DNA from: Pirellula staleyi DSM 6068
Lineage (GTDB): Bacteria > Planctomycetota > Planctomycetia > Pirellulales > Pirellulaceae
Direction: 5' to 3'
NCBI GenBank assembly: GCA_000025185.1
Contig: CP001848.1
Coordinates: 4,230,001-4,262,000 of the forward strand
Length of the DNA: 32,000 nucleotides
Positions 2,117-30,670 of this stretch are shown piece by piece; the stretch's first letter is position 1; each line of letters opens with the position of its first letter. The notes under the pieces are model-generated. The model saw only the letters and a program-made list of their open reading frames with translations. It was not told the origin of the DNA and searched no databases. The position numbers and the translations under genes were made by a program.

Positions 2117-2142
2117 GCGCTACGTTTAACAAGCGAGTGAAT

Positions 2143-6624: not shown

Positions 6625-6707
6625 CCCGCAAGTCGACGGTCCAGAAGACCGATTTGCGAGAGGGAAAGATAGCAGGATCGTTCTTCAGCGTCTACGCCGA
6701 AAACCCG

Positions 6708-7760: not shown

Positions 7761-7852
7761 GGCACCACTCAGTGAATGAGGTGTTTGGGCCTAATCTCCT
7801 TTGGCCTACCAGGGGGGGTGAATGTCGTATCGGCACGATCGTTACAAATGGA

Positions 7853-9862: not shown

Positions 9863-11461
9863 ATGAACGAGCCCGTGCGAAGTTTGCGTCGATTGAGCGT
9901 GGCGATTGTTGCCCGAAATGCGGCAGCTATCATCGAGCGAACGATTCTGTCGGCCCATCGAGTGGCAAGTGAAGTGCTTGTGGTGGATGCTGGCTCCACC
10001 GACGACACCGTGGCGATTGCTCGCACGCACGGCTGTTTGGTCCACCTGCACGAATGGGAAGATAGCTTCGCCGAAGCGCGAAATGCCGCACTGCGACTTG
10101 TCAGTGGCGACTGGATTTTGTGGCTCGATGCGGGCGAGACGATAGAAGAAGCGACAGCCGAACAACTTGTGCCGTTTGTGAAGCAATTTGCTGCGATCGA
10201 CCGCGTCTATCAGTTGCCCGTGGTTGTTCCTGCAGAGCCCGGTTTGGTGGGTGGTGAGCAGATTTATCGCGTACGGCTTCATCCGCGACGTCCGGGAATG
10301 CAGTTTCAGTCGCGCGTGCGGGAAGTGCTCGACAAATCCCTGTTTGCTTTTGGGATGAGCGTGGAATCGCTTCCATTGCCGATTCAGCGAGGAATCGAAG
10401 ATCACGATTTTGAAGTGAAAGCAGCGAAGGCTCGCCGCAATATTAAACTGGCCGATTTGCAGCTCACCGAGCGTGGTCCCTCGGCGGAAATGCACAATTG
10501 CCTGGGGGAAGCGTTCCAGTCGCTGGGAGAGACTGAGCGAGCACGCGTCCATTACGAACAAGCAACGCAGCTCGCCAAAGCGGGAACTCGCGAGCATCTG
10601 GAAGCTTACTACGGCCTGCTCACCGCGATCGATGGCGAGACCGATGATCGCGAGAAACAGCTGGCGCTCTGCATGCAGGGTGTCGAGCATTTTCCACTCG
10701 ATGCGCAGCTTTTGACGGCACTTGGCGGCTATTTGCAGTCGCTTGAGCAGCCTGAGCTGGCGATTCGGGCCTATACCCTGGCGTGGCGCAGTGGCCAGAT
10801 CGAACAAACTCTGTGGCATCTCCCCGACATTCAGCAGATTGCAGCCCACTGCGAGTCGATTTTGCTTTCCTCGCTCGGGCGGGTTGAAGAAGCGGTGCAG
10901 ATGCTCGAAGAAGCGCTTCGCCGGATGCCGGGCGCGCCACGACTGCTCAAACAACTGATTGAACTGCAAACGCGGCTCGGAAACTTCGAGGGAGCTATTC
11001 ACGCCGTCGATCAGCTTCCAGAGCCTGAATTCGACCGGGCTCGCTGGCAAAGTGCGGTGAGTGGACTCGCCTCGTTTTCGCAAGGAAACTGGATCACGGC
11101 CGATCTGCTGCTGACTGCGGCCTGCGAACAAGGGATCGCCGAGCCCCTCTTTTTGCGAACCTGGGTGGAATCCCGCATCCAGCGTGGGCTCCGTTCGGCT
11201 GCTCAGCAAGCTTTAGCCGTTTATCAGCAAGTGGCCCCCGCTCACGAGGCAATTGCAAGGCTCGCTGCGGCTGTTTCGATCCTCCCGCCAGATGTCCCGG
11301 CCGTAAGTCCGGCCAAAGAGCCAATTAAGCCCCTCTCGAAAGAGAATCGGCGATTCGATCGACCAGGACCGCTGGCAGCTCGAAAGCCAGCCCCCAAAAC
11401 AAGTTCGTCCGGTTCAGCGGCCGCATCAGCCGGGGAATCTAGCGAACCACCTGTAGGCTAG
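9863..11461 (+). CDS. GT2 glycosyltransferase with C-terminal TPR-like repeat region
   Basis: The N-terminus has LSVAIVARNAAAIIERTI, VVDAGSTDDT, FAEARNAAL and WILWLDAGE (GT2 DxD-like). The C-terminal ~330 aa are helical repeats with TPR-like A/L/G/Y spacing. ATG 9863 is preferred over TTG 9839 because AGGGAGGGAAG lies just upstream. Confidence 0.8.
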   Translation: MNEPVRSLRRLSVAIVARNAAAIIERTILSAHRVASEVLVVDAGSTDDTVAIARTHGCLVHLHEWEDSFAEARNAALRLVSGDWILWLDAGETIEEATAEQLVPFVKQFAAIDRVYQLPVVVPAEPGLVGGEQIYRVRLHPRRPGMQFQSRVREVLDKSLFAFGMSVESLPLPIQRGIEDHDFEVKAAKARRNIKLADLQLTERGPSAEMHNCLGEAFQSLGETERARVHYEQATQLAKAGTREHLEAYYGLLTAIDGETDDREKQLALCMQGVEHFPLDAQLLTALGGYLQSLEQPELAIRAYTLAWRSGQIEQTLWHLPDIQQIAAHCESILLSSLGRVEEAVQMLEEALRRMPGAPRLLKQLIELQTRLGNFEGAIHAVDQLPEPEFDRARWQSAVSGLASFSQGNWITADLLLTAACEQGIAEPLFLRTWVESRIQRGLRSAAQQALAVYQQVAPAHEAIARLAAAVSILPPDVPAVSPAKEPIKPLSKENRRFDRPGPLAARKPAPKTSSSGSAAASAGESSEPPVG

Positions 11462-12579: not shown

Positions 12580-12691
12580 TCGCTGGTTGCACTTCGATGT
12601 CATCGAGCGCGAGTGTCGGGTGAACCTCGCGCTCTCGGATCGGCTCTCTGCTTAACGCTTTCGACAAATTTCTATTGGGACTTTGCAAGCG

Positions 12692-15600
12692 ATGTTTAAC
12701 AGTGTTCCCGCTAGTGCGCCGTTTCCAAAACTCGAACAAGAGGTTCTGCAGTTCTGGCGGGAAAACAAGATTTACGACGAGTCGCTCGAGCGCCGCAAAG
12801 ATGCCGAGCGTTTTGTCTTCTTCGAAGGGCCGCCGACAGCCAACGGCATGCCGCACCCAGGGCACTGCCTGACGCGCTCGATCAAGGATCTGTTTCCTCG
12901 CTATCAAACGATGCGAGGAAAACTGTGTGAGCGTAAAGCAGGCTGGGACACCCATGGACTTCCTGTCGAAGTGGAAGTCTGCAAAGAGATGGGGATCCAC
13001 TCGAAGGAAGAGATCGAAGCCTTTGGCATCGAGCCCTTTATTCATCGCTGCCAAGCGAGCGTTTGGCGCTACATGCAGCAGTGGGAAAAACTGACCGAAC
13101 GCCTCGGCTTTTGGATCAAACTCGACCAGGCCTACGTCACCTATCACCAGTCGTTCGTCGAATCGGTCTGGTGGTCGCTCAAGCAACTGTTCGATAACGG
13201 TCTTCTGTACCAAGGCCACAAGATCGTTTGGTGGTGGGCCCAAGGCGGGACCGCGCTATCGAGCGGCGAAGTAGGGCAGGGGTATCGCGAAGTCGCCGAC
13301 CCGAGCGTTTACGTCCTGTTTCCGCTGCTCGACGATGCCGGAAATCCCGAAGGAACGTCGCTCCTGGTTTGGACCACCACACCTTGGACACTCCCAAGCA
13401 ACCAGTTCGCTGCAGTCCATCCCGATTTGGATTACGTTGTCGCGCGTGATACCGAAACCGATCAGCGGATCATCCTTGCAGCAGCACTGGTTGAGACGAT
13501 CGCTGCGAAGTCCAAGCGTCCACTGGAAGTCGTCAAAACGCTCAAGGGGAGCGAACTCCTTGGCCGGCGCTATGTGCCACCTTATTCGTATTACTACAGC
13601 CAACTCGGCAGCACGACTGGCAAGCTCGTTGCAGGTGGCGAAGCCTCCATTGCATGGCGTGTGGTAGCTGCCGATTTCGTGACGACCGACAGCGGTAGTG
13701 GCGTCGTGCATCAAGCACCTGCCTTTGGCGAAGTCGACTTCGACGTGCTTGTAGCTGAAAAAGCGAAGTTCGTCGTCGGCGAAGGTCCTGAACTGATCTG
13801 CGCCGTCGGTCCGGATGGCAAGTTCACCGCAGAAGCGCCGACCTACCAAGGTCGCTGGGTGAAGGATTGCGACAAAGAAATTCAGCGTGAACTCAAGGCT
13901 GCTGGCTTGCTTTATCACCAAGAGCAATACCTGCACGACTATCCCTTCTGCTGGCGCGCCGACAACGATCCGCTGATCCAGTACCCACGTCGAAGCTGGT
14001 TCATTCGGACCACCAAGTTCCGCGACGAAATGCTCGCGAGCAACGAGAAAATCAACTGGCTTCCGGGGCATATCAAAGAAGGTCGCTTCGGCAACTTCCT
14101 CGAGAGCAATGTCGACTGGGCCCTTTCGCGCGAACGCTTCTGGGGCACTCCGCTGCCGATCTGGGTCTGCGAGACCACAGGCCAGATGCAGGCGATTGCC
14201 AGCTATGCCGAGCTCGAGCAAAAGCCTGGCGCGAGCGGCTTCGAAGCGTGGGCTAATGCCAAGCAAGCCAATCCCGAACTTGTCGAAGATCTGAAGGTGC
14301 ACAAGCCTTACATCGACAACATCACCTACGACTCGCCGTTTGCCACTGGCGCGAAGATGCGCCGCGTGAGCGAAGTGATCGACTGTTGGTACGACAGTGG
14401 CGCGATGCCATTCGCGCAGTGGGGCTATCCGCACAAGGGAGCCGCTGATTTTCAGCAGCAGTTTCCCGCTGACTTCATCAGCGAAGCAATCGATCAAACC
14501 CGAGGCTGGTTCTATAGCCAACTGGCGATCAGCACGATGCTGTTTGGCAAAGGTGGCGTGAGCGGCGAAGCACAGCCTCGCGAGTATCCGCATCCATTTA
14601 AGAACTGCATCGTGCTTGGACTGATGCTCGGCGAAGATGGCCAGAAGATGTCCAAGAGCAAGCGAAACTATCGCGAGCCCAACGAGATCTTTGATAAGTA
14701 CGGCGCTGATGCACTACGCTGGTATTTCTTTGCGAATCAGGCTCCCTGGACGAGCATTCGCTACAAAGAACAGTCGATCAAAGACAGCATCCCTGAGTTT
14801 CTGTTGCGACTCTGGAACTGCTATTCGTTCTTCGTGATCTACGCCAACATCGACGGCTTCGATCCCTCGAAATTGCTCGCCGATGTCGGTGATGGACAAC
14901 TCGATGCAGCCACGCTTGCCAAAGCCAAGCACTATCGCCCCATCGCCGAACGCGGTGAGCTCGATCGCTGGATCATGGGCGAGTTGCACAAGACTTCCGC
15001 CGACGTCACCAGGCTGATGGATCAGTACGACAACTTCGAAGCTTGCAAGCTTTTGAACGCCTTTGTCGACGGACTATCCAACTGGTTCGTACGTCGTTCG
15101 CGCGAACGTTTTTGGGCTGCCGATAAAACCTCGCCCGAAAAGCTCGACGCCTACTGGACCCTCTATGAGTGCCTGCTCACCACCGCGAAACTCATCGCGC
15201 CGTTCACGCCGTTCCTCGCGGAAACGCTGTGGCAGAACCTCGCGCGGTCAGTTAGCAGCGACGTCCTGAAAAGCGTGCATTTGTGCGATTTTCCTGAGGG
15301 AAATGCAGCGAATGTCGACTCGCTGCTGTCAGAACGAATGAAGCTCTTGCGCGAAATCGCGTCGCTCGGTCTTTCGGCTCGCATGGCGAACAAACTGAAG
15401 GTTCGTCAGCCTTTGTCGCGAGTGGAAGTGATTCTGAGCAACGCGACACATCAAGCGTGGCTCACCGAGCACGACGAACTTTTGCGCGACGAACTGAACG
15501 TCAAAACAATTGACTACGCCACCAAGGCTGACGAGTACATCACCTACCAAGTGCAGCCTAACTTCAAGCGACTCGGTCCCAAGATCGGCAAACTGCTCCC

Positions 15601-16069
15601 CGCCTGCAAAGCAGCGCTCGGTAATGCCGACGGGGCGACGCTCCTAGCGCAGTTGCAAGCCACCGGCAAAGTGGTACTCACTCTTGGCGGCGAGACACTC
15701 GAACTCGACAACGAAGATATCCAGGTCCGCTTACAAGCCAAAGAAGGCTGGGCTGCGGCTCAAGGCTCGGGCTGCGTGGTCGTCCTTTCGACCGAACTTA
15801 CCCCCGCGCTGATTCGCGAAGGTTATGCCCGAGACCTCGTGCGGCTGATTCAAGATCGTCGTAAAGAACTCGGGCTAGACTACAGCGATCGAATTGAAGT
15901 GGGAGTCGTTTCGAACTCGGAAGAACTAGCTTCAGCGGTTCTCGAGCACGCATCGTTCATCGCCAGCGAAACGCTTGCCACGCATGTCGGAACTTCCGCT
16001 CTCGATTGTGAAGCGGTCGAAACTGAACTCGGCGAGATTCCGATTTCGCTTTACGTTCGAAAAGTCTAG
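12692..16069 (+). CDS. ileS: isoleucine--tRNA ligase (type 2 / eukaryote-like class)
   Basis: HIGH-type motif PHPGH in [21 protein letters not shown] motif ([11 protein letters not shown]), a CP1 editing-domain-sized insertion, and total length ~1125 aa. There is no C-terminal Cys4 zinc cluster. ATG 12692 is preferred over TTG 12683. Confidence 0.95.
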
Positions 16070-16165: not shown

Positions 16166-16786
16166 ATGACTGACAAATTGCCCATCGCGGTGTTCATTTC
16201 GGGTGGTGGAACAACGCTGCGCAATTTGCTCGGGAGGATCGCCGAGGGAAAGCTCGAGATCGATATTCGTCTGGTGATCTCGAGTAGTCCTTCGGCCAAG
16301 GGGCTCGATTACGCCTCCGCCGCTGGCATCACGACACTGGTTGTAGAAAAGATTCCCGGCACCAAGGCCGAGGTTTATAGCGAACAGATGTTCGCCCCTT
16401 GCCGCGAAGCAGGGGTGAAGCTCGTCGCGATGGCCGGCTTTCTGAAGCACGTCCTGATTCCAGCCGACTTCGAAAATCGCGTCCTTAATATTCACCCCAG
16501 CCTCATTCCGTCGTTCTGCGGCAAGGGAATGTACGGCCCCAAGGTCCACCAGGCGGCGATTGCGTTTGGTGCGAAGATCAGTGGCTGTACGGTCCACTTT
16601 GTTGACAATCAGTACGACCACGGTCCGATTCTGCTTCAGCAAGCGGTTCCCGTGCTCCCCAGTGACACTGCCGACGACCTCGCCCATCGTGTTTTCGAAG
16701 CGGAGTGCGAGATTTATCCCGAGGCGATCAGCCTCGTGGCAGCAGGCCGCGTGAGTGTCGTAGGCCGCAAAGTCGTCGTCGTCTAG
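16166..16786 (+). CDS. purN: phosphoribosylglycinamide formyltransferase
   Basis: IAVFISGGGTTLRNL, NIHPSLIPSF, CTVHFVDNQYDHGPIL. Catalytic Asn/His/Asp context and ~205 aa length are typical of PurN. Confidence 0.9.
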   Translation: MTDKLPIAVFISGGGTTLRNLLGRIAEGKLEIDIRLVISSSPSAKGLDYASAAGITTLVVEKIPGTKAEVYSEQMFAPCREAGVKLVAMAGFLKHVLIPADFENRVLNIHPSLIPSFCGKGMYGPKVHQAAIAFGAKISGCTVHFVDNQYDHGPILLQQAVPVLPSDTADDLAHRVFEAECEIYPEAISLVAAGRVSVVGRKVVVV

Positions 16787-16982: not shown

Positions 16983-17000
16983 GTGATAGAAATCTTTCAC
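16983..17000. promoter_or_regulatory. imperfect palindrome GTGATAGAAATCTTTCAC upstream of the DeoR/BMC operon (candidate operator)
   Basis: 7 of 9 symmetric positions pair. It lies 65 nt upstream of the DeoR start. The half-site with flank, CTTTCACGC...ATCT, also occurs at 16864-16880. Confidence 0.25.
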
Positions 17001-17064
17001 GCATCTGCTTGATAACTACTACTCGTGCAGCCATAATTGGGAAAACTGCGCGGAGTTTACGCAC

Positions 17065-17868
17065 TTGATTCGCCAAACCACCACTGAAGATCGTCGCAAC
17101 CGACTGCTGGAGTTGATCCAGCAGCGCGGCTTTGCGTCGCTGCCCGACTTAGCCGGTCAGCTTCAGGTTTCGGAATCAACAGTCCGCCGTGACCTAGACT
17201 TTCTGGAAGAAACGGGCGTAGCTCAGCGGACTCACGGCGGTGTTTTCTATACCGGCCCGTCCCCCAAACTTGCCCATTTTGACCAGCGGCAGTCGACCCA
17301 TTGGGACAAGAAACGCCAGATTGCGGTGGCTGCGAGTCGCTTAGTTGAAGATGGCGACACACTGCTGCTGGACGGCGGAAGTACCACCTACGAACTAGCG
17401 CAACTCCTTGTGGGGCGACCGCTTCAGGTGGTTACCAATTCGCTACCAGTGGCCAATTTGTTTACCAGTAGTGACCGCGCCGACCTCGTGCTGATTGGTG
17501 GCTATGTCCACGCTCGCACTGGTGTTTCGCTCGGTCCCTACGCCAATCAGATGCTCAGCGGACTTTGCGTTCGCCGTGCGATCATCAGTGTGGCGGGCGT
17601 TAGCGAGCGAGGCTTCTTCAACAGCAACCTGCTGCTGGTAGAAACCGAGCGAGCCATGATGGGAGCCGCCGACGAAGTGATTGTCGTCGCTGATAGCACC
17701 AAGTTTGGTCACACCAGTCTCGCTCACCTTTGCAATTTGAACTTCATCGACACGCTCGTTACCGATCACGAAATCGATCCCACCTGGCAATCAGCCCTCG
17801 AAGAGCAGGGGGTCCGCGTGGTGATTGCCGAGCAGCCTCAAGAACAAACCAATTCGCCTTCGAGCTAA
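17065..17868 (+). CDS. DeoR/GlpR-family transcriptional regulator (sugar-phosphate sensing type)
   Basis: N-terminal HTH (RRNRLLELIQQRGFASLPDLAGQLQVSESTVRRDLDFLEE) and C-terminal DeoR-C effector domain (LLLDGGSTTYELAQLL, VVTNS). TTG start with GGAG 10 nt upstream. Only 29 nt separate it from pduL. Confidence 0.85.
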   Translation: MIRQTTTEDRRNRLLELIQQRGFASLPDLAGQLQVSESTVRRDLDFLEETGVAQRTHGGVFYTGPSPKLAHFDQRQSTHWDKKRQIAVAASRLVEDGDTLLLDGGSTTYELAQLLVGRPLQVVTNSLPVANLFTSSDRADLVLIGGYVHARTGVSLGPYANQMLSGLCVRRAIISVAGVSERGFFNSNLLLVETERAMMGAADEVIVVADSTKFGHTSLAHLCNLNFIDTLVTDHEIDPTWQSALEEQGVRVVIAEQPQEQTNSPSS

Positions 17869-17897
17869 TTCGTAAGCAGTAAGAGCACTACCTAATC

Positions 17898-18605
17898 ATG
17901 AGCAACCTTGCCACTCTCGATCGCGATACTGTCGAACGCATTGTGCGCCAGATCGTCCTCGGAGCCACCGCTGTTCCTTCCGCGAAAGCCGAAGCGCCGC
18001 GAACTCCGAAGCTGATCGTCAGCATCTCGGCCCGCCATTGCCATCTCACCGATGAGCACGTCGAAGTGCTGTTTGGCCCTGGACACAAACTCACGCCCGA
18101 CAAGAACCTCTACCAAGACGGTTTCTATGCCGCTGCCGAAACGGTGATGGTCGTCGGCCCACGTCGACGCATGCTACCGACCGTTCGCGTGCTTGGCCCA
18201 ACGCGTCCTTTCAGCCAAGTCGAACTCGCCTTCACCGACAGCATTTCGCTCGGCATCGATGCACCTGTTCGCCACAGCGGCAACATCAAGGGAACGCCGG
18301 GCTGTGTGCTTGTCGGACCCAAGGGTGTTGTCGAATTGACCGAAGGTGTCATTCGTGCTGCCCGTCACGTCCACATGAACCAAGAAGACGCCGCGTTCTA
18401 CGGCGTGAAGAACGGCGACTTCATGAAACTGCGAGTCGAATCGCCGCAGTGCAGCGTGGTGTTCGAAGACCTTCTGGTCCGCGCAGATAACACCAGCAAA
18501 CTCGAAGTCCACATCGATACCGACGAAGGCAACGCCTGCTATCTCGACTCGGCAACCAAGGTGGAACTCCTTCCACAAACCGAAGGTTGTAAGTGCAAAC
18601 ACTAG
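17898..18605 (+). CDS. pduL: phosphate acyltransferase PduL (BMC phosphotransacylase) with N-terminal encapsulation-peptide-like helix
   Basis: Two PduL repeats carry the ARH-x-H signature ([10 protein letters not shown] and [10 protein letters not shown]). The N-terminal [15 protein letters not shown] is followed by an A/P/S-rich linker. Confidence 0.9.
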
Positions 18606-18692
18606 CGCAGTTGTCTGCGATTCACTGGGTCGCTGGCAATCTCGCTTGATTCTCGAAACTAACGTGTTTTTCTTTTTTCTCTGGAGTATGAA

Positions 18693-19001
18693 ATGGCCAA
18701 AACGAACGAAGCGCTCGGCATGATTGAGACCAAAGGCTTCATTGCCTTGGTTGAAGCTACCGATGCCATGCTGAAAGCTGCAAACGTCGAATTCCTCGGT
18801 TGGGACAAGGTCGGCAGCGGTCTTGTTTCGGCATTCGTCACCGGCGACGTCGCCGCTGTGAAGTCGGCTACCGATGCCGGCGCTGCAGCTGCTGGTCGCA
18901 TCGGCGAAGTGGTCAGCGTGCAAGTCATTCCTCGTCCACACGAAGACCTCCACATCGTTCTTCCACCATCGATCAAGCGCGCTCGTCCTTCGGTCGAATA
19001 G
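18693..19001 (+). CDS. BMC shell protein, single-domain hexamer type (BMC-H)
   Basis: [26 protein letters not shown], pore-loop [23 protein letters not shown]: the Pfam00936 pattern. It has a 15-aa basic C-terminal tail. GGAG lies 6 nt upstream of the ATG, preceded by a 16-nt pyrimidine tract. Confidence 0.95.
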
Positions 19002-19062
19002 TCGCCCGGTCAGCAGCAAGTCACCTCTGAACTTAAGTTCTGTTTTGCAAGGAATACCTTAG

Positions 19063-19332
19063 ATGTCGAGTGCAATTGGATTGATCGAAACCAAAGGTCT
19101 CGTCGGCCTTGTTGAAGCCACCGATGCCATGGCCAAAGCCGCTAACGTGCAAATCGTCAAGCGCATTGGTATCGGCGGTGCCTTCATCACCACGATTGTT
19201 CGTGGCGACGTGGGTAGCGTTCGTGCCGCTGTTGAAGCTGGTGCCCAAGCCGCTCAGCAAACCGGCGAACTCGTCGGCAGCCACGTCATCGCCCGTCCTT
19301 CGGAAGGTCTCGTGGAAGCGTTCCTGAGCTAA
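19063..19332 (+). CDS. BMC shell protein, single-domain hexamer type (BMC-H), second paralog
   Basis: [54 protein letters not shown]. Confidence 0.95.
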   Translation: MSSAIGLIETKGLVGLVEATDAMAKAANVQIVKRIGIGGAFITTIVRGDVGSVRAAVEAGAQAAQQTGELVGSHVIARPSEGLVEAFLS

Positions 19333-19404
19333 GTCGTCCGCGCGATGCATCGTCTGTGTCGCGCCAGGGTAATGAGGAAAGTTCATCAAAGGAGTGTCTG
19401 CATC

Positions 19405-20589
19405 ATGAAGGTGCTAGTCGCCAATCTAGGATCCACGAGCTTTAAGTACCGTCTGTTCGACATGTCGAGCGAGACGCAACTGGCACGTGGTGGCGTTGAA
19501 CGAATTGGATCTCCCGAGTCACCTTGCTTCGTCGAAATCGGATCGAGTCGAACCGAACTTCGCACGCCTGTGCCGGATCATGCCGTCGCGGTGCGAACGT
19601 GTCTCGCTCAGCTCACCGATCCAGTTTCGGGATGCCTCAAGGATGCTTCGGAAGTCGCAGCGATTGGCTTCAAGGCAGTGCATGGCGGCCGCGTCAGCGG
19701 TGTGCAGCGTGTGACGCCCGATGTCCTGGCTGCGATGGAAGAGATGAACCTCGTTGCTCCGGCGCACAATCCACCCTACATCGCAGCCATGCGGCTTCTG
19801 GGCGAGAAACTGCCAGAAATTCCGCTTGTGGCCGCGTTTGAAACTGGATTTCACAACACGATCGCCGACCGACTTCGCACCTATCCCATTCCTCATGAAT
19901 GGGAAGAAAAGCTGCACATTCGCCGCTGGGGTTTCCACGGAGCAAGTCACCGCTATATCGCCATGCGAACCGCCGAACTCATCGGCCGCTACGATCTGCG
20001 CGTGATCTCGTGCCACCTCGGAGGCTCCAACAGTTTGTGCGCGATTCGCGGACAGCAAAGCGTTGCGACCACGATGGGAATGAGCCCTCAAACCGGATTG
20101 CCACACAACAATCGTGTCGGGGATTTCGATCCCTTTGCGATTCCGATGGTGATGAAAGAGTTTGGGCTCTCGCTGCATCAGGTGCTCGACACGCTGGCCG
20201 AAAAAAGTGGTCTGCTCGGACTATCGGGAATCAGCGGAGATATTCGCGATCTCGAGCAAGCAGCAGCCGAAGGTAAATCGCGTGCACGACTCGCGCTCGA
20301 TGTTTTCATCGCCGAAATTCGCCGTCATTTAGGTGGGCTTCTGGTCGAACTAGGTGGCGTCGATGCCGTCGTGTTCACCGGAGGAATTGGCGAGAACAGC
20401 CGAGCAACTCGTGCAGGTGTCTGTGCCGGACTCAGTGAACTCGGGATCGATCTCGATCTCGCGAAGAATGAAACGCATCGCGGCGAAGGTTGCCTCTCGT
20501 CGCCCGCAAGCCGTGCTCAGATTTGGGTGATTCCGACCAACGAAGAGTTGATCGTGGCACGCCAAACAAAGCACTTGCTGGAAGGATAA
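19405..20589 (+). CDS. ackA: acetate/propionate-family kinase (acyl-phosphate -> acid + ATP)
   Basis: [15 protein letters not shown] (N-terminal ASKHA phosphate loop), [24 protein letters not shown] 19405 has AAAGGAG at 19388-19394. The longer track ORF from 19345 is rejected. Confidence 0.9.
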
Positions 20590-20594
20590 TTTCG

Positions 20595-20909
20595 ATGTTC
20601 GTTGCGAAAGTAACCGGATCACTCGTCTCGACGCAGAAGGTGGCGTCGATGGTGGGCTACAAGCTCCTCATCGTCGAACCTTATCGCGTCGAGCCCAAGG
20701 ATCGCACGACACTCGTCACCACAGGACGCACGTTTGTAGCCGTCGACACCTTGGGTGCCGGCGTGGGGGACTACGTCCTGCTGACGCAAGGGAGCAGCGC
20801 TCGTCTCACTCCCGAGACTAAGTCACTCCCCATCGATGCCGTCGTGATCGGGATCGTCGATACGGTGCATGTCGACACGGGATGCGTTTATTCCCGCGAA
20901 AACAGCTAA
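20595..20909 (+). CDS. BMC vertex protein (EutN/CcmL family, BMC-P), paralog 1
   Basis: MFVAKVTGSLVSTQK and AVDTLGAGVGDYVL fit the Pfam03319 pattern. The ATG lies 5 nt after the ackA stop, with GGAAGGA upstream. Confidence 0.9.
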   Translation: MFVAKVTGSLVSTQKVASMVGYKLLIVEPYRVEPKDRTTLVTTGRTFVAVDTLGAGVGDYVLLTQGSSARLTPETKSLPIDAVVIGIVDTVHVDTGCVYSRENS

Positions 20910-20990
20910 GGCTTCGTTCCGCTCGTCATGCATCGCGCTTCGCAGCGAACCTAACTACTCCGCCCAAAAACACTCCAATCGAGTTTGAAT

Positions 20991-22430
20991 ATGCAGATCA
21001 ACGAAGAGCTTATCCGCAACGTCGTCGCCAAAGTGCTCGCCGAGGTCAATCGCGGCGCACATGCTGGCAGCAAATCTTTTGCTGGCCGCAATGGCGTGTT
21101 TACTTGTCCGGATGAAGCTGTCGCTGCCGCTCGCACCGCTTTCGAGCAACTCTCGGAGCGAGGCCGCGAAGAACGCAAGCGAATCATCGATCACATCCGC
21201 CGCATTTCGATCGATCAGTCGGTCGAACTCGGCACGATGGAAATGAACGAAACGAAAATCGGCCGCTTGCAGCACAAGATCGAAAAGCTGCATACACTCG
21301 GGATGAAGACCCCCGGTGTCGAGTTCCTTCGCTCGGAAGTTTATAGCGGCGATCATGGCCTCGCGGTCATCGAGCACGCACCCTTTGGAGTGATCGGTGC
21401 CATCACTCCCGTCACCCACTCGCTCCCCACCATCACCGGCAATGCTGTGAGCATGATTGCGGCTGGTAATGCCCTGGTCGTGAACCCACACCCCAGTGGT
21501 AAGAAAGTGGCTGCCGAAGGTGTGCGTCGTTTCAACGCGGCGATCTACAAAGATCTCGGCATCGACAACCTGATCAGTGTGATTGCCGAACCGACCCTCG
21601 AGACTGCCAACTCACTGTTCGCTCATCGTGGTGTGAACATGATTTGCGTGACAGGCGGTCCCGCAGTCGCTCGCGCAGCGCTGAAGAGTGGCAAACGGGC
21701 CGTGGTTGCTGGTCCTGGTAACCCACCTGTAGTCGTCGACGAAACAGCCGACCTCGATCGGGCTGCCCGCGCCATCATTCAAGGTGGTGCTTATGACAAC
21801 AACTTGCTCTGCATCGCCGAGAAAGAAGTCTTCGTGGTCGCCAGCGTCTTCGACGCCATGATGGCCGCCATGGAACGAGCTGGCGCTGTCCGACTGAATG
21901 CCAAAGAGGTCGATGCTTTGACCAAAGCCGCCATCATTCAAGTGGGTGAAGGGGAGCATAAGCACGACGCTCCGAGCAAGGATTTCCTCGGTCAAGATGC
22001 TGCGGTCCTCGCTCGCGGTGCCGGCAAATCGGTACCAGCCAATGTGGAACTCCTCTTCGGCGAAACCGACGAGCACAACCCATTCGTTCCTGTCGAACAG
22101 ATGATGCCGTTCGTTCCGTTCGTTCGTTGCCGCGACGTCGATCATGCGATTGAACTAGCCAAGAAGTACGAACATGGCTTCCGGCACACCAGCATCATTC
22201 ACAGCAATAACGTTCGAAACATGACCCGCATGGGTCGTATCCTCGACACCACGCTATTCGTGAAAAACGGACCTTGCATGGCGGCTCTAGGACTGGGTGG
22301 CGAAGGCTACTTGTCGTTCTCAATCGCTGGTCCCACGGGTGAAGGGGTCACGACACCACTTACTTTCACCCGCGAACGTCGCTGCTCGCTGATCGACGAT
22401 CTCTACATCCTCGGCAAGCCCAAGAGCTAA
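20991..22430 (+). CDS. CoA-acylating aldehyde dehydrogenase (PduP/EutE-like) with N-terminal encapsulation-peptide-like helix
   Basis: The catalytic-Cys context [10 protein letters not shown] and [14 protein letters not shown] are typical of BMC acylating AldDH. The N-terminal [17 protein letters not shown] precedes a short linker. Confidence 0.9.
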
Positions 22431-22461
22431 CCCAGGTTTGAGTGTCACACAGGAGCCTTCG

Positions 22462-22719
22462 ATGCAAGTCGCACTCGTGGTTGGAACGGCCACCGCAACG
22501 CTGAAGCACAGCTCGATGAAGTCGCAAAAGCTGCTCATCGTGCAGCCGATGCTCGTCGATGGCAGCACCCCCGATGGCGACCCTCAAGTGGCGGTCGATG
22601 CCGTGGGGGCAGGCAAAGGGGAACGTGTGCTGATCAGCAGTGATGGTCGCTACATGCGAGATGTTTTGAAGGCGGATGCTACTCCGGTTCGCTGGAGTGT
22701 GATCGGAATCTGTGATTAA
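22462..22719 (+). CDS. BMC vertex protein (EutN/CcmL family, BMC-P), paralog 2
   Basis: MQVALVVGTATATLKH, AVDAVGAGKGERVL. AGGAG at 22451-22455. Confidence 0.9.
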   Translation: MQVALVVGTATATLKHSSMKSQKLLIVQPMLVDGSTPDGDPQVAVDAVGAGKGERVLISSDGRYMRDVLKADATPVRWSVIGICD

Positions 22720-22745
22720 CCAACTCGCTGCATAGACGTGAATTT

Positions 22746-23492
22746 GTGAACGCTACCGAAGTCGAAAACCTGGTTCGCGAAGTGCTGCGGCAGCTTACTG
22801 CCGTTAGCTCCGCCGCGCCTGGTTCGACCGCTGTCGCGTCGCCGAAACCCCCAGTCGAAACTCCCCGAACAGCACCCATTCCTAGTGGAACGGCAGTCGT
22901 TCGCGATTCGCTGGTAACACTCGCTTCGATCGAAGACCGCTTGACCGGCATTTCGCGGATGGTCGTTTCGTCGCGAGCTATCGTTACGCCAGCTGTGGTC
23001 GATGAACTTCGCAAACGGGGAATTTCGATCGTTCGGTCGGCGGATGCCATCGCTGGTACAACGCTCGCCAATCTCGGGCGGGAATTGGTGGTTACGCTCG
23101 CCTCCGATGGTCTGGCCGCACTGCGAACCGATTTGGTGAGTGTGCTTCGCCGGACAATTCCTCAGCTGGAACTGATCGATAACTGCCGCTCGCCCAAGCT
23201 CGAAGATGTGCTGGCCGAACTAACGTCGCGCGTCGTATCGCGTGGCCGTGTGGGATTGCTCCTGACGTCGACGACCGCTGTAGCAGCTGCCCTGGCGAAC
23301 CGCACCCGCGGTGTTCGAGCCTTGGTCGCCACGAGTGGCCAGTCGATCGACGACGCAGCCGACACACTGGCTCCCAATTTGATTGTGGTCGACCGCTTGA
23401 AAGTCAACGTCTGGCAACTCCGCGCGATTGCCTCGCGGCTGGTGTCGCACGGTGTAATGACCCCTGCGGCTCCCTGGAACCAATTGCTCTAG
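22746..23492 (+). CDS. BMC-associated protein of unknown function: EP-like N-terminus, Pro-rich linker, EutQ-N-like module, degenerate RpiB/LacAB-like domain
   Basis: GTG start, the only start-like codon after the upstream in-frame stop apart from a CTG. It sits between two pentamer genes with gaps of 26 and 14 nt. Domain reading is given in the findings. Confidence 0.7.
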   Translation: MNATEVENLVREVLRQLTAVSSAAPGSTAVASPKPPVETPRTAPIPSGTAVVRDSLVTLASIEDRLTGISRMVVSSRAIVTPAVVDELRKRGISIVRSADAIAGTTLANLGRELVVTLASDGLAALRTDLVSVLRRTIPQLELIDNCRSPKLEDVLAELTSRVVSRGRVGLLLTSTTAVAAALANRTRGVRALVATSGQSIDDAADTLAPNLIVVDRLKVNVWQLRAIASRLVSHGVMTPAAPWNQLL

Positions 23493-23506
23493 GAGCTTCA
23501 GCAGCC

Positions 23507-23791
23507 ATGCGAATTGCCAAAATCGTCGGAACTGTCACCCTCAGCCGTTGCCACGACACCTTCGTGGGAGCGAGCTTGCGATTAGCAGTTCCGATGACCT
23601 TGCCCGAACTGCGCGGCGAGACTCAGCCTGCAGCCGATGAAATCGTCGTTTGGGACGACCTCGGCGCCGGTCTCGGCTCGATGATTGCCGTCAGTGAAGG
23701 TGGCGAAGCGGCTCAGCCGTTCCGCCCGAAAGACAAACCGGTCGATGCCTACGCAGCAGCGATTTTCGACGACCTGCGTCTCGACCCCTAA
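23507..23791 (+). CDS. BMC vertex protein (EutN/CcmL family, BMC-P), paralog 3 (divergent)
   Basis: MRIAKIVGTVTLSRCH, WDDLGAGLGSMIAV. It carries an internal acidic/Pro insertion, LPELRGETQPAADE. Confidence 0.85.
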   Translation: MRIAKIVGTVTLSRCHDTFVGASLRLAVPMTLPELRGETQPAADEIVVWDDLGAGLGSMIAVSEGGEAAQPFRPKDKPVDAYAAAIFDDLRLDP

Positions 23792-23868
23792 ACCGAAACC
23801 AACTTACCACCGTGCGGAACTTGGTTCCGCGAACCATACATTTCACTTCCTACTGAGGAATCTAGATC

Positions 23869-24732
23869 GTGGCGAATATTCACAAGCTGAAGCAAGACAT
23901 CTGCGAGATCGGTCGTCGCCTCTATAACAAAGGCTTCGCCGCTGCGAATGACGGTAACATCACGATTCGTGTCAGCGAGAACGAAGTGCTCGTTACACCC
24001 ACCATGCACTCGAAGGGTTTTCTCAAGCCCGAAGATATTTGCATGATGGATATGTCGGGCAAGCAGATTGGCGGCACCAAGAAACGCTCGAGCGAGGCGC
24101 TGTTGCACCTCGAGATCTTTCGCGAACGTCCCGAAGTGAAAAGTGTGGTGCACTGTCATCCACCACATGCCACCGCGTTTGCCATCGCTCGTGAGCCGAT
24201 TCCCCAGTGCGTGCTTCCCGAAGTCGAAGTCTTTCTGGGTGATGTTCCAATCACCATGTATGAGACTCCTGGCGGAAAAGAATTCGCAGAGACGGTGCTC
24301 CCCTTCGTCAAGAAGACCAACGTCATCATCCTGGCCAATCACGGCACAGTGAGCTACGGCGATAACGTCGAACAAGCCTACTGGTGGACGGAAATTCTCG
24401 ACGCCTATTGCCGCATGCTGATGCTCGCCAAAGATCTCGGCCGCGTGAACTACTTCAGCGAGAAGAAAGAACGCGAGCTGCTTGAGCTGAAAGACAAGTG
24501 GGGCTGGAAAGATCCTCGCAATACACCTGAATACAAAGATTGCGACATCTGCGCCAACGACATCTTCCGCGACAGCTGGAAACAATCGGGCGTGGAACGC
24601 AAAGCCTTTGAGGCTCCCCCTCCGATGGCACCATCTGCCAAGAAAGAGGCTGCTCCTGCAGCCGCCGGAGATCAGGAAGCACTCGTCAGACTCATCACCG
24701 AACGTGTGCTCGCCGAGCTCTCGAAGAAGTAG
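23869..24732 (+). CDS. class II (metal-dependent) aldolase, fuculose-/rhamnulose-1-phosphate aldolase-like, with C-terminal encapsulation-peptide-like helix
   Basis: GNITIR, E-x-x-LH (SSEALLHLEIF), VVHCHPPHATAF and LANHGTVSYG form the Aldolase_II pattern with Zn-binding His residues. The C-terminal extension is an A/P/K-rich linker followed by QEALVRLITERVLAELSKK. GTG start with GAGGAA upstream. Confidence 0.9.
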   Translation: MANIHKLKQDICEIGRRLYNKGFAAANDGNITIRVSENEVLVTPTMHSKGFLKPEDICMMDMSGKQIGGTKKRSSEALLHLEIFRERPEVKSVVHCHPPHATAFAIAREPIPQCVLPEVEVFLGDVPITMYETPGGKEFAETVLPFVKKTNVIILANHGTVSYGDNVEQAYWWTEILDAYCRMLMLAKDLGRVNYFSEKKERELLELKDKWGWKDPRNTPEYKDCDICANDIFRDSWKQSGVERKAFEAPPPMAPSAKKEAAPAAAGDQEALVRLITERVLAELSKK

Positions 24733-24819
24733 TTCTCTGAGAACTTCTTCACGAAAATTCGGCCGGAAGTGTCCGTTCTACTCTCGAACTCTTGTTATCT
24801 TTGACGCTGTGGTGTGATC

Positions 24820-25764
24820 ATGAAAGTTTCGATCATCGGTGGTGCTGGTCTCGTCGGTTCGAGTGCCGCTTTTGCGCTGCAGTGCGGCGGTGTGGCCAGT
24901 GAAATTGCTTTACTCGACGTGAACCTCGATCTAGCAGGTGGGCATGCCCTCGACTTGCTGCATGGTGGGCCAAGTACCGCCGATCAAGTGATTACCGCTG
25001 GTGGCTATGAGCATGTTCCCGATAGCGACATTATCTGCATCACTGCCGGTTTGCGTCGTAAGCCTGATGAAAGTCGACTCGATCTGATCAATCGTAACAC
25101 CGACCTGTTCGTCTCGATCCTCACCGAGATCCAGAAGGTGGGTTACAAGAAAGAGGCGATTGTGATTGTGGTGAGCAATCCGGTCGACATCCTTACCTAC
25201 GTTGCTGCCGATCGCTTGAACTTGCCTCACTCGCAGGTGATTGGTCTCGGAACGCAGCTCGATACGATTCGTTTCCGAAGTCTGATCGCGCAGCAGTTGA
25301 AGGTCGCTCCTTCGCAAGTGCAAGCACTGATCCTGGGGGAGCATGGCGACAGCATGGTGCCGATCTGGTCGAGCGCGACGATTGCTTCGCTGCCACTGGA
25401 TAAGTTTCCAGGCTGGAATCTTCGTCTGGCGGACGAACTCTTTACCCGCACCAAGGGTTCGGGAGCCGAGGTGATTAAGAAGAAAACCGGCGCTGGCTTT
25501 GCCGTGGGGATTGCGATCCGCGATCTTGTCGATTCGATCATCCTCGACCAGAAACGGATTCTGCCGATCTCGTCGATCCAAAATGGTTGCTACGACATTC
25601 GCGACGTCGCGCTGAGTGTTCCAACAGTTCTCGGCCGCAAGGGTGTGGTGGCCCGTCACGAAATCGAACTTTGGCCGAAGGAAGTGCAGCTGCTTCGCAA
25701 GAGTGGTTTGGTGCTCCGCCAAACCCTCGAACAAGTGCTCGCCCGCATCGGCCGAAAGAAGTAG
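24820..25764 (+). CDS. L-lactate/malate dehydrogenase-family NAD oxidoreductase
   Basis: Rossmann motif KVSIIGGAGLVGSSAAF, AGLRRKPDESRLDL, SNPVD, IGLGTQLDTIRFR, and catalytic His in LGEHGDS. ATG 24820 is preferred over GTG 24814. Confidence 0.9.
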   Translation: MKVSIIGGAGLVGSSAAFALQCGGVASEIALLDVNLDLAGGHALDLLHGGPSTADQVITAGGYEHVPDSDIICITAGLRRKPDESRLDLINRNTDLFVSILTEIQKVGYKKEAIVIVVSNPVDILTYVAADRLNLPHSQVIGLGTQLDTIRFRSLIAQQLKVAPSQVQALILGEHGDSMVPIWSSATIASLPLDKFPGWNLRLADELFTRTKGSGAEVIKKKTGAGFAVGIAIRDLVDSIILDQKRILPISSIQNGCYDIRDVALSVPTVLGRKGVVARHEIELWPKEVQLLRKSGLVLRQTLEQVLARIGRKK

Positions 25765-25794: not shown

Positions 25795-25951
25795 GACGCT
25801 ATCCCCGGCGTCCTACTCCCTCAAGAAAAATTGGCACGCCCCCTAAATTCACGAATCTGTGGGGGGGAGGTAGCCGTCTTACGTATGAATCCCGCAGGTT
25901 GTGCCACTCGGCAAGAGCCTGCCGTGTCTTTAAAATCTCGGGGAATTCGTG

Positions 25952-28042
25952 ATGCTCCTCTCTGCTACTCGCTGGCTTCGTGGTGCGCTGGCCGTCATTG
26001 TGCTGGCCACTTCCACTGGACTCTTATCGGCTCAAGACCCTGCTGCGGAGGGTGAAGCAAAGCCTGCTCTACCGCTGGGACGCGTGGTGATGTTCAGCAG
26101 TGGTGTGGCGTTCTACGAGCGCCGCGGCGATGTCGAAGGGGATGCCACCATCGACCTGCGTTTTAATACGCGCGACATCAACGACCTGCTCAAGAGCATG
26201 GTTCTCGAGGACCTGGGTGGCGGTCAGATCTCGACCGTTTCTTACGGCAGCAAAGATCCGATCACACGGACGCTCCGCACCTTTTCGATCGATCTCACCA
26301 CAAGTCCGACGCTCGGAGACTTGCTGGCCCAAATTCGTGGCGAGCGGATCGAACTTGATAGCCCCACACCCACCAGTGGCGTGATTGTGGGGATTGAAAA
26401 ACGGGATCAAAAAGTGGGGGATCAAGTCGTACAGACTTCGATTCTTACTCTGCTAACCGACGAAGGCTTGCGGAACATTTCGCTCGACAACATTGGCCGC
26501 ATCAAGCTGTCGAATCCCAAGCTCGATGCCGAACTTCGTCAGGCACTGCTGGTGCTGGCGATGGGGAAGTCAGCCGACAAGAAGTCGGTCTCGCTTAGCT
26601 TCACAGGCAAAGGAAAACGCCCCGTTCGTGTCGGCTACATTCAAGAGTCGCCGATCTGGAAGACCAGCTATCGCCTGGTGCTCGACGACGAGAAACAGCC
26701 GCTACTGCAAGGCTGGGCGATTGTCGAGAACACGACCGAGGAAGACTGGAACAACGTGAATTTGACGCTGATTAGCGGGCGTCCGATTTCGTTCACGATG
26801 GATCTTTATCAGCCGCTTTACATCGACCGGCCCGAGGTTAAGCCAGAACTCTACGCCTCGCTGACACCGCGTACCTATGATCAATCGATGGCGGAGGCGG
26901 ATCGCGAGTTTGAGGCGCTGGCGCACGATGAAAAAAGCCGCGATGCTGCTGCCAAGCCAGCCATGGCCAACCGCCGGATGGCCGAAGCAGCCTCTAATGG
27001 CGTTGAATTGCAGATGATGAAGCGCGCCGAAGATAAGGCTTTCAATCCGGCCAGTGGCGTGCAGTCGGTTGCCACCGCCAGCGACGTGGGCGAGCTCTTT
27101 CAATACCGCATCGCAACCCCTGTCTCGCTCGAACGTCAAAAGTCGGCGATGCTGCCGATCGTGAACGATTCGGTGAAGGGTGAGAAGGTTTCGATTTACA
27201 GCGAGTCGTCGCATGCCAAGCATCCCCTCAGTGGTGTTCGGCTGAAGAACAGCACCGATCTGCACCTGATGCAAGGTCCGATCACGGTGTTCGACGGTGG
27301 TGCCTACGCCGGTGATGCTCAGATTCAGGATCTACAGCCTGGAACCGAGCGGCTGATCAGCTACGCCCTCGATCTCGATACCGAAGTGGCTCCTTCGATC
27401 GAAGGCTTGCCCGAGGAACTGGTGAGCGTGAAGGTGGTGCGTGGTGTTCTCGAGTCGTCGCGCAAGTATGGTCGCAAGAAGAACTACGTGATCAAGAATT
27501 CATCGAAGAAGACGAAGCAAGTTCTGATCGAATACCCTGTCGAGGCATCGTGGAATCTGATCGAACCCAAAGAGGCGACCGAGAAGACTCGCGACCTCTA
27601 TCGGTTTGCCGTCGCGGCCGAGCCCGGTGTCGCTGCCAATCTGCTGGTGCGTGAAGAGCGTGTCGATACTCAGCGGGTGGCACTAGCCAACTGCGATGAC
27701 AACATGATCCGCTTCTATATCCAAGCCGCCGTTGTTTCACCTGCCCTGAAAGAAAAACTGGGCGAAGTGATTAAACGGAAAGAGGGGCTCGCTCTGCTGG
27801 TGGCTAAGCGTGGCGAACTCGAGCGTCAAGTGACGGTGATCTTCGAAGAGCAAACCCGCATTCGCCAAAACATGGAACAGCTCCCTAAAGACTCGGACTT
27901 GTTCCGCCGCTACGTCACGAAGTTTAACGAGCAGGAAGATAAGGTGGAGCAGCTTCGCGAGCAGATCAAGAAAGCGATCGACGACGAGAATAACGGTCGC
28001 AACGATCTGAATAACTTCCTCTCGAACATCGACCTGTCCTAA
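25952..28042 (+). CDS. secreted DUF4139-like protein with C-terminal coiled coil
   Basis: Signal-peptide-like N-terminus (LRGALAVIVLATSTGLLSAQD). The block SPIWKTSYRLVLDDEKQPLLQGWAIVENTTEEDWNNVNLTLISGRP matches my recollection of the DUF4139/TIGR02231-type signature (W-x-x-x-Y..., T-G/E-E-D-W-x-x-V-x-L-x-L). The last ~110 aa are heptad-like and charged. Confidence 0.6.
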   Translation: MLLSATRWLRGALAVIVLATSTGLLSAQDPAAEGEAKPALPLGRVVMFSSGVAFYERRGDVEGDATIDLRFNTRDINDLLKSMVLEDLGGGQISTVSYGSKDPITRTLRTFSIDLTTSPTLGDLLAQIRGERIELDSPTPTSGVIVGIEKRDQKVGDQVVQTSILTLLTDEGLRNISLDNIGRIKLSNPKLDAELRQALLVLAMGKSADKKSVSLSFTGKGKRPVRVGYIQESPIWKTSYRLVLDDEKQPLLQGWAIVENTTEEDWNNVNLTLISGRPISFTMDLYQPLYIDRPEVKPELYASLTPRTYDQSMAEADREFEALAHDEKSRDAAAKPAMANRRMAEAASNGVELQMMKRAEDKAFNPASGVQSVATASDVGELFQYRIATPVSLERQKSAMLPIVNDSVKGEKVSIYSESSHAKHPLSGVRLKNSTDLHLMQGPITVFDGGAYAGDAQIQDLQPGTERLISYALDLDTEVAPSIEGLPEELVSVKVVRGVLESSRKYGRKKNYVIKNSSKKTKQVLIEYPVEASWNLIEPKEATEKTRDLYRFAVAAEPGVAANLLVREERVDTQRVALANCDDNMIRFYIQAAVVSPALKEKLGEVIKRKEGLALLVAKRGELERQVTVIFEEQTRIRQNMEQLPKDSDLFRRYVTKFNEQEDKVEQLREQIKKAIDDENNGRNDLNNFLSNIDLS

Positions 28043-28160: not shown

Positions 28161-28691
28161 TTAGGCGACCGGCATCAACGCCGAGTCGCTTTCGTGCAGG
28201 GCGACGCGATCGGTGACAAACTGCACTACAAAGTGTGTGAGTCCGACGCAAAGTTCATCCCCGTGCTGCACAGCGCTTTCGCTCACAGGCTTGCCGTTGA
28301 CAAACGTGCCGTGGCGGGAACCGAGGTCGCGCACCGAAAGCTGTCCATCGTGGAGGTGGATTTGACAATGTCGCCGGCTAATCCAGCGATCGTCAATACG
28401 CACCGACGCGGTAGTGCTACGGCCAATTTCAATCGGAAAGCGATCGAGCGTAAGCTCGCGCGGTGAAGCCAGAGGGTCCTGGCACACAAGTTTTACAATC
28501 ACGGTGGGGGAACCGAAACTGAGAGCAGGGGCTGCGAACTGCTCGGCGGGTGGTGGGAGTGAAAAAAGCGGCAAACTCGCAGTTTTTCCACGAAGTGTGA
28601 TCCTATATCGGCACGCACCGATGTCAATTGCCTTTTGACAATTCTTCTCATTTCTCCGGTACATTCGGCCGGTTGGTGGTCTCGCAATCAC
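28161..28691 (-). CDS. FHA domain-containing protein
   Basis: IGRSTTASVRIDDRWISRRHCQIHLHDGQLSVRDLGSRHGTFVNGKPV is a canonical FHA core (G-R, S-x-x-H, N/H-G-T-x-V-N-G). The first ~63 codons of the ORF are not protein-like. The true start may be the internal GTG at 28502, giving ~113 aa. Confidence 0.7.
   Translation of the reverse strand: MIARPPTGRMYRRNEKNCQKAIDIGACRYRITLRGKTASLPLFSLPPPAEQFAAPALSFGSPTVIVKLVCQDPLASPRELTLDRFPIEIGRSTTASVRIDDRWISRRHCQIHLHDGQLSVRDLGSRHGTFVNGKPVSESAVQHGDELCVGLTHFVVQFVTDRVALHESDSALMPVA

Positions 28692-28987: not shown

Positions 28988-30670
<1,683 letters not shown>

Follow-up and report, generated by a model that had tools for sequence, protein, structure and literature searches.

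Gene content and class of the locus

The 32,000-nucleotide stretch of the Pirellula staleyi DSM 6068 genome analyzed here (contig CP001848.1, positions 4,230,001 to 4,262,000 of the forward strand; hereafter the window, with positions counted from its first letter) contains between positions 17065 and 25764 a run of 12 consecutive open reading frames (ORFs), all on the plus strand. These very probably constitute the main PVM (Planctomycetes/Verrucomicrobia microcompartment) locus of this bacterium, encoding a protein-shelled organelle that would serve the lactaldehyde branch in the catabolism of deoxy-sugars of the L-fucose/L-rhamnose type. The genes encode, in order, a DeoR-family regulator, a PduL-type phosphotransacylase, two hexamer-forming shell proteins of the bacterial microcompartment (BMC) class (BMC-H), an acetate kinase, a pentamer-forming shell protein (BMC-P), a CoA-acylating aldehyde dehydrogenase (AldDH), a second BMC-P, the protein PvmL, a third BMC-P, a class II aldolase and a dehydrogenase of the lactate/malate dehydrogenase (LDH/MDH) family. 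Going by consecutive numbering they are probably Psta_3278-3289. The first-pass annotation of this DNA had reported eleven co-directional genes separated by short gaps; the common orientation and the spacing hold (5-87 nt with the revised starts given below), but the genes number 12, as they do in its own list.

Eleven of the 12 proteins far exceed the Pfam gathering scores of their families, and every family named beforehand for such a check, those of the shell proteins included, was recovered; the exception is PvmL, with 248 amino acids (aa). The shell gene set comprises two PF00936 proteins, PvmD (18693..19001, 102 aa, 96.1 bits) and PvmE (19063..19332, 89 aa, 88.7 bits), which are 50% identical, and three PF03319 (EutN_CcmL) paralogues, PvmH (20595..20909, 104 aa, 98.4 bits), PvmK (22462..22719, 85 aa, 85.7 bits) and PvmM (23507..23791, 94 aa, 68.9 bits). 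The three BMC-P are mutually 28-41% identical, PvmH sharing 41% and 28% with the other two. The regulator PvmA (17065..17868, 267 aa) matches HTH_DeoR (61.5 bits) and DeoRC (152.8 bits) and reaches no NCBIfam equivalog cutoff.

The enzymatic core is formed by PvmB (17898..18605, 235 aa, ADB17943.1), the PduL-type phosphotransacylase, with 241.7 bits to PF06130 (PTAC) and, at subfamily level, 247.9 bits to NCBIfam PRK15070 (cutoff 209), and by the aldehyde dehydrogenase PvmJ (20991..22430, 479 aa, ADB17948.1), with 111.6 bits to PF00171 (Aldedh), 629 bits to PRK15398 (cutoff 403) and a catalytic-Cys motif visible in its translation. The signature enzyme is the class II aldolase PvmN (23869..24732, 287 aa, ADB17952.1; PF00596, 165.7 bits, cutoff 22.2), whose translation contains the Glu and His positions that make up the Zn site in FucA of E. 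coli (SSE, HCH and NHG). To these are added the acetate/propionate-family kinase PvmG (19405..20589, 394 aa; PF00871, 351.7 bits; TIGR00016, 347 bits, cutoff 293) and PvmO (24820..25764, 314 aa), an LDH/MDH-family 2-hydroxyacid dehydrogenase (PF00056, Ldh_1_N, 122.9 bits; PF02866, Ldh_1_C, 109.4 bits). The remaining gene, pvmL (22746..23492), is annotated as Psta_3286, 'hypothetical protein'. In exact-sequence look-ups PvmB, PvmJ, PvmL and PvmN agreed in every residue with P. staleyi DSM 6068 entries, and PvmO has 100% identity to the entry 'Lactate/malate dehydrogenase [Pirellula staleyi DSM 6068]'.

Orthologue conservation and the gene predictions for a public contig of 99% identity (L081), from which the call of pvmK was taken, led to a revision of four translation starts: 19405 for the acetate kinase, 20595 for the first BMC-P, 20991 for AldDH and 22462 for the second BMC-P. 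In the kinase, conservation among 69 orthologues sets in exactly at MKILVANLG, and the call of that contig likewise gives 394 aa.

The gene content is that of the published PVM definition: a PF00596 signature enzyme, an acylating AldDH and a PduL-type phosphotransacylase as the core, a DeoR regulator, an acetate kinase and an LDH/MDH-family dehydrogenase as ancillary proteins, and a planctomycete host. Axen 2014 (PMC4207490) names the aldolase as the PVM signature enzyme, counts DeoR and AckA as ancillary and predicts the LDH/MDH-family gene to be the NAD+ recycler. Sutter 2021 (PMC8217296) describes PVM, with 285 loci confined to Planctomycetes and Verrucomicrobia, as two BMC-H with a BMC-P triplet, and gives families for PvmB, PvmD/E, PvmG, PvmH/K/M, PvmJ, PvmL, PvmN and PvmO; these are the families found here (that of PvmL is taken up below), which supports the assignment. 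Furthermore, P. staleyi DSM 6068 is typed as PVM in Table S2 of Axen 2014, which records two BMC-H, one BMC-T and three BMC-P for it in two loci, one of them a satellite, and the entry 'PVM[Pirellula staleyi DSM 6068]' of its AldDH alignment has the same sequence as PvmJ. The absence of a tandem-BMC protein (BMC-T) noted in the first reading is borne out, none being found among the proteins of the window; it is the norm for PVM according to Sutter 2021, where the single BMC-T of the genome, Psta_3171, is labelled 'PVM (sat)' and lies in a satellite locus outside the window.

Aldolases of family PF00596, often accompanied by a BMC-P triplet, are common to the PVM-like, GRM5, MUF2, ACI and SPU5 types, and on these features the locus might be placed in one of them and not in PVM proper. 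We regard this as extremely improbable: the main locus contains neither a glycyl-radical enzyme nor a BMC-T, it has no PF01791/PF02502 enzyme pair and no PF00389-type 2-hydroxyacid dehydrogenase, its BMC-P outnumber its BMC-H, the host is a planctomycete, and the typing of Axen 2014 is PVM.

The locus is thus an already known one, typed as PVM in this genome since 2014, and the earlier statement that its organelle class is known and not novel agrees with both catalogues. The discovery value is accordingly small, since the exact locus has been catalogued for years and the organelle type has been characterized genetically in a related species. Most of the points that had been left unexplained (the missing BMC-T, the LDH-like gene standing in place of an alcohol dehydrogenase, and PvmL) are covered by the literature. 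Of residual value are a re-description of PvmL, a questioning of the role of PvmO in NAD+ recycling, and a candidate operator.

Encapsulated enzymes, cofactor recycling and substrate

Evidence for encapsulation peptides was sought in alignments of 64-79 orthologues per protein. PvmB begins with a conserved helix followed by a variable linker (66 orthologues), PvmJ has the conserved N-terminal helix EELIRSVVAQVLAEV, also followed by a variable linker (79 orthologues), and PvmN carries a conserved helix, DQEALIQAITDRVMAAL, at its C-terminus after a variable Ala-rich linker (74 orthologues). In all three enzymes the helix is amphipathic and is set off by the linker from the catalytic domain, and the N-terminus of PvmL is built likewise. 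Because of these conserved amphipathic peptides, we infer that PduL, AldDH, the aldolase and PvmL reside inside the shell. The acetate kinase PvmG has no such peptide, its conservation in 69 orthologues beginning just where the kinase domain itself starts, and it is probably a cytosolic protein outside the shell. PvmO has neither an N- nor a C-terminal extension, hence no encapsulation peptide, in 64 orthologues, and would be cytosolic as well.

In the model, which takes its chemistry from work on Planctopirus (Planctomyces) limnophila, a shell made of hexamers of the two BMC-H and pentamers of the three different BMC-P would enclose the first steps. The aldolase PvmN would split fuculose-1-phosphate or rhamnulose-1-phosphate into dihydroxyacetone phosphate (DHAP) and L-lactaldehyde, which PvmJ would oxidize to lactyl-CoA with formation of NADH. 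PvmB would then convert lactyl-CoA into lactyl-phosphate, recycling CoA, and the acetate-family kinase PvmG, probably outside the shell, would produce lactate and ATP.

The NADH formed by AldDH has to be reoxidized. The first-pass annotation had remarked that there is no Fe-type alcohol dehydrogenase for this purpose; PvmO is indeed the only other dehydrogenase of the locus, and Axen 2014 assigned NAD+ regeneration to it, nothing else in the locus being able to perform it, a role that appears doubtful here given the missing peptide and the 2-hydroxyacid-dehydrogenase residues. The protein falls between the curated models of both subfamilies, with 288 bits against a cutoff of 303.6 for L-LDH and 274 against 283 for MDH (NCBIfam), and its best relatives in the PDB, LDHs and LDH-like MDHs, are nearly tied. 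Every column of its loop ITAGLRRKPDESRLDLINRN / GLRRKPDESRLDL is at least 90% conserved in 64 orthologues, and so is Arg at position 102, where LDHs have Gln and MDHs Arg. PvmO also retains R109, D168, R171 and H195, which in LDH numbering are the catalytic and carboxylate-binding residues of 2-hydroxyacid dehydrogenases.

On these grounds, that is, the lack of a peptide, Arg102 and the retained carboxylate-binding residues, we doubt that PvmO recycles NAD+ in the lumen. It would more plausibly be a cytoplasmic acid dehydrogenase that oxidizes lactate to pyruvate or acts on malate/oxaloacetate. The competing view, in which PvmO is a luminal lactaldehyde reductase that regenerates NAD+ in place of PduQ/EutG and is recruited without a recognizable encapsulation peptide, is possible but distinctly the less probable one. 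It draws on PvmO being the only other dehydrogenase of the locus and on the gene order, since in 61 of 65 related loci the aldolase gene is immediately followed by pvmO. It has to accommodate, besides the absence of any terminal extension, catalytic residues of LDH type and an Arg102 that point to a 2-oxo acid and not to an aldehyde as the substrate, as well as the four loci (L044, L058, L059 and L075) with enough downstream sequence in which no LDH-like gene directly follows the aldolase.

Nothing in the window clearly provides luminal NAD+ regeneration. A PduS-like NADH dehydrogenase (MNdh) that together with an Fe-S BMC-T exports electrons was described in 2024 (PMC11626177), and of the 20 occurrences of this module in PVM genomes 18 are in satellite loci. 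The satellite BMC-T Psta_3171 may belong to such an electron-export module.

Several observations weigh against this overall reading of the locus. Substrate, induction and formation of the organelle in P. staleyi are extrapolated from P. limnophila, and no experiment on P. staleyi was found in the literature. PvmN stays below every NCBIfam equivalog cutoff, and its best match is OtnC, a 3-oxo-tetronate-4-phosphate decarboxylase (134 bits), followed by FucA (118 bits); the sequence by itself thus does not fix the substrate. Genes for a fucose or rhamnose isomerase, kinase or transporter are absent from the 32-kb window, in agreement with the earlier remark that no sugar isomerase or kinase accompanies the aldolase. 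Finally, the role preferred above for PvmO departs from the published prediction, and does so only on the missing peptide, Arg102 and the carboxylate-binding residues.

The scores of PvmN and the missing upstream-pathway genes would suit a PVM organelle whose aldolase acts on another phosphorylated sugar or keto-acid, the encapsulated aldehyde then not being lactaldehyde. We consider this improbable, since orthologues of the aldolase with 64-82% identity occur in the same conserved operon across Planctomycetota, the P. limnophila lineage included, a dependence on fucose and rhamnose has been reported for P. limnophila, and Lentimonas has been reported to catabolize fucose in a PVM BMC.

PvmL and its RpiB/LacAB-like domain

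The one gene of the locus that had been left without a function encodes PvmL, which consists of an encapsulation peptide, a linker and a degenerate domain related to RpiB/LacAB. The PvmL of the window gave no hit to any Pfam family, PF02502 included, nor to NCBIfam, and a search for 'PvmL' in the literature found nothing relevant under that name. A word-index search returned 11 relatives; with a full profile search the family grew to 2,472 cluster representatives (E ≤ 0.001), of which 614 reach E ≤ 1e-30, with lengths mostly of 225-270 aa. Their alignment reveals the conserved N-terminal helix IERIVREVLRRL, a variable Ala/Pro-rich linker, a conserved module (VVTL..L.GRL......V....AVVTPAV.DELR.R.I) and a C-terminal part with the motifs GLLLT....A...ANR..GVRA and ANLLVVD.

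The relationship with RpiB/LacAB emerges from structure and from profiles. In the AF2 model of PvmL, which is of moderate confidence (pLDDT 69.8), the predicted fold is the three-layer α/β arrangement of RpiB. When the model was compared with the PDB by Foldseek, the top 45 matches were all RpiB/LacAB, with E values down to 7e-7 and target-normalized TM-scores of 0.45-0.79 (0.61-0.79 for canonical RpiB/LacB entries). Profiles built from 12 and from 100 members match LacB and RpiB of the PDB at E values of 2e-5 to 3e-3, and 79 of 100 family members match PF02502 (E 6.7e-7 to 0.1). Sutter 2021 files PvmL under the flavoprotein family PF02441. That assignment is not supported here: the families recorded in the scan of 100 members do not include PF02441, and 79 of these members match PF02502.

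PvmL shares with RpiB/LacAB (PF02502) the predicted fold and a similar C-terminal half, including the motif ANK/ANR-x2-G-(I/V)-RA, and differs from it in its N-terminal encapsulation peptide and linker and in the replacement of the catalytic residues. In the profile alignments Thr174, Ala180 and non-conserved residues occupy the RpiB catalytic positions. Thr174 aligns with Cys66 of the E. coli enzyme, Ala180 with Glu75 of that of M. tuberculosis, and the non-conserved residues with the His99-Asn100 pair. Because the positions of the catalytic Cys, Glu and His-Asn are replaced or non-conserved, PvmL is read as catalytically degenerate; as judged from its sequence, it is an RpiB-like protein no longer equipped for the known isomerase reaction, and it would most likely act as a non-catalytic accessory or structural protein of the lumen.

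The distribution of PvmL among relatives was followed in a comparison set obtained by scanning species-representative genomes with AldDH as the query. The best 80 loci were listed (L001-L080), with 78-87% AldDH identity; P. staleyi itself is not among them, and among the matches listed all belong to Planctomycetota or to unclassified bacteria. Profile hidden Markov models (HMMs) detected PvmL in about 48 of the 80 loci as a long form, which has about 200-300 aa or, where its linkers are long, as many as 481, and in about 18 as a short form of 81-119 aa, consisting of the peptide, the linker and a module of about 45 residues only. The loci with a short form include most of the closest relatives of the window by AldDH identity, the window itself having the long form. 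In 11 of the 80 loci there is no gene between the second and third BMC-P, and profile HMMs run on all six frames of the loci without PvmL did not find it relocated elsewhere. Many PVM organelles therefore do without the RpiB-like body, and this speaks for an accessory and not a core catalytic role. PvmL is better described as a peptide-tagged, catalytically degenerate RpiB/LacAB-like protein that has been shortened or lost in many PVM loci.

Regulation, surroundings and relation to known systems

Upstream of the regulator gene, at positions 16983..17000, lies the 18-bp palindrome GTGATAGAAATCTTTCAC, a candidate operator of PvmA. It is the sole copy in the window of the motif GTGAWWGANNTCWWTCAC, with no mismatch against 0.09 copies expected by chance, and it is located 82 nt before the start of pvmA and 9 nt before a -35-like hexamer. 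The motif came from a k-mer enrichment analysis of the sequences that precede the regulator gene. Allowing up to two mismatches, 32 of its 35 matches in 81 sequences (the 80 loci and the window, 1.41 Mb) fall within 300 nt upstream of that gene, in regions that make up 1.4% of the sequence searched; this count is partly circular, the pattern having been derived from the same regions, while the positional bias is not. Of 65 loci, 29 have the palindrome in front of the regulator gene, mostly between -60 and -108. In P. limnophila the PvmA/promoter pair has been used as a rhamnose-inducible expression system, and the work on that species suggests that PvmA is a repressor (PMC11958385). PvmA would probably keep the operon repressed by way of the palindrome as long as no sugar-derived inducer is present, and the conserved palindrome would offer an operator candidate for a rhamnose-responsive regulator already in use as a genetic tool in Planctomycetota. 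A σ70-like promoter match, TTGATA-17-CATAAT (17009..17037, plus strand), agrees with the consensus at 10 of 12 positions, a weak signal in view of the two such matches in the region against 3.0 expected; the promoter and terminator scan as a whole gave counts no higher than in shuffled sequence.

The genes flanking the locus are those reported earlier: ileS (12683-16069) and purN (16166-16786) on one side, a DUF4139/MuiA-like gene (25949-28042) and ilvD (28988-30670) on the other. The view that the locus is stably inherited was upheld by the comparison set. All detected genes are colinear with those of the window in 73 of the 80 loci and all 11 genes other than pvmL are present in 57, and where the upstream sequence is long enough (54 loci), ileS and/or purN precede the locus in 26-30, roughly half. 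The downstream flank DUF4139-ilvD hardly recurs (0 and 1 of 51 loci, respectively) and is essentially peculiar to this lineage. In L047 and L072 a DUF4139 homologue is found upstream of the locus instead. The GC content across the locus, 0.55-0.59, is the same as that of the flanks. Horizontal transfer of the locus was considered and rejected because of this flat GC content and the widely conserved linkage to ileS-purN.

The other genes of the window encode an alpha-2-macroglobulin fragment, an ABC exporter, four glycosyltransferases and a component of a betaine-type ABC transporter, and no further BMC, fucose or rhamnose gene was found in the rest of the 32 kb; the scans for tRNA genes and Rfam families were empty. 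The alpha-2-macroglobulin-like sequence (42-2030) is a C-terminal fragment running in from the window edge. The glycosyltransferase genes (5524-11461) comprise two GT8 and two GT2, one of the latter with a methyltransferase domain and the other with TPR repeats, and are unrelated to the microcompartment. Two ORFs of 292 and 289 aa, at 2137-3015 on the plus strand and 2143-3012 on the minus strand, overlap almost fully, neither with a Pfam match. Between the DUF4139 gene and ilvD there is a 90-aa ORF (28194-28466, plus strand), which is called as a gene in L081 and has no Pfam family there.

Among known systems the closest is that of P. limnophila, pvmABDEGHIJKLMNO (PMC11958385). Compared by family and not by sequence alignment, both loci have the same families in the same order, as the first reading had expected, with the exception of pvmI: the P. 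staleyi locus has no equivalent of this gene, only 81 nt separating the first BMC-P from AldDH. In L053, L065, L075 and L052 the corresponding gap is 250-300 nt, which leaves room for a small gene that may be pvmI. Regulator and pvmB are closely spaced in the two species, 29 nt apart in P. staleyi and 46 nt in P. limnophila; the species differ in the satellite BMC-T, present in P. staleyi as Psta_3171 and lacking in P. limnophila (Axen 2014, Table S2). The PVM-like/GRM5 loci of Firmicutes share with the locus a class II aldolase for fuculose/rhamnulose phosphate, AldDH, PduL and often a DeoR regulator; according to the literature, however, their AldDH, phosphotransacylase and BMC-P are related to those of GRM5, and their hosts are anaerobic Firmicutes.

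PvmL also resembles two proteins of other organelles, PduM and the 'eut_hyp' family (TIGR02536), which like PvmL are encoded in BMC loci and have an N-terminal helix similar to an encapsulation peptide, and whose C-terminal ends align with the conserved module of about 45 residues. PduM is a core-localized structural protein with its own N-terminal signal sequence and, according to a 2025 study, lacks homologues outside Pdu. The short forms of PvmL and many of the long ones match PduM and eut_hyp (NCBIfam) weakly and at a consistent place, the short forms at E values of 2.5e-5 to 0.03, and among 100 family members 62 match eut_hyp and 25 PduM. The cutoff of the PduM family (NF011957/TIGR04493/PF15953) is not reached by PvmL, its best score being 21 bits against 179 and confined to the last ~30-45 positions of the model. 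PduM sequences for a profile were collected with a Salmonella PduM sequence that served as bait only (246 bits against the curated model, cutoff 179); aligned with PvmL by hhalign, they gave 41-43 columns with P values of 3e-4 to 8e-4 and probabilities of 25-38%.

The AlphaFold model of Salmonella PduM is a confident one (pLDDT 90.9, pTM 0.80). Compared with the PDB by Foldseek, the PduM model (proteins P0279 etc.) found no significant match (best E 0.1) and no RpiB, and the PduM profile found no sequence match in the PDB. The α/β fold of PduM thus appears to be without a solved relative. A common RpiB-derived fold of PvmL and PduM was rejected, the confident PduM model having neither an RpiB-like nor any other significant match in the PDB. 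For the same reason the resemblance is taken as a local motif and not as established homology.

With these results in mind we propose, as a tentative and rather unlikely extension, that PvmL is the PVM counterpart of PduM/eut_hyp, a peptide-tagged, non-catalytic factor that would help to couple cargo to shell. Its essential part would be the peptide and the β-α-β module of about 45 residues, which is what the short forms retain, and the RpiB/LacAB-like remainder would be a relic, itself in decay, of a sugar-phosphate isomerase that might share its origin with the PF02502 signature enzyme of the SPU-type microcompartments, which also have a BMC-P triplet. Were this so, PduM would gain relatives outside the Pdu organelles.

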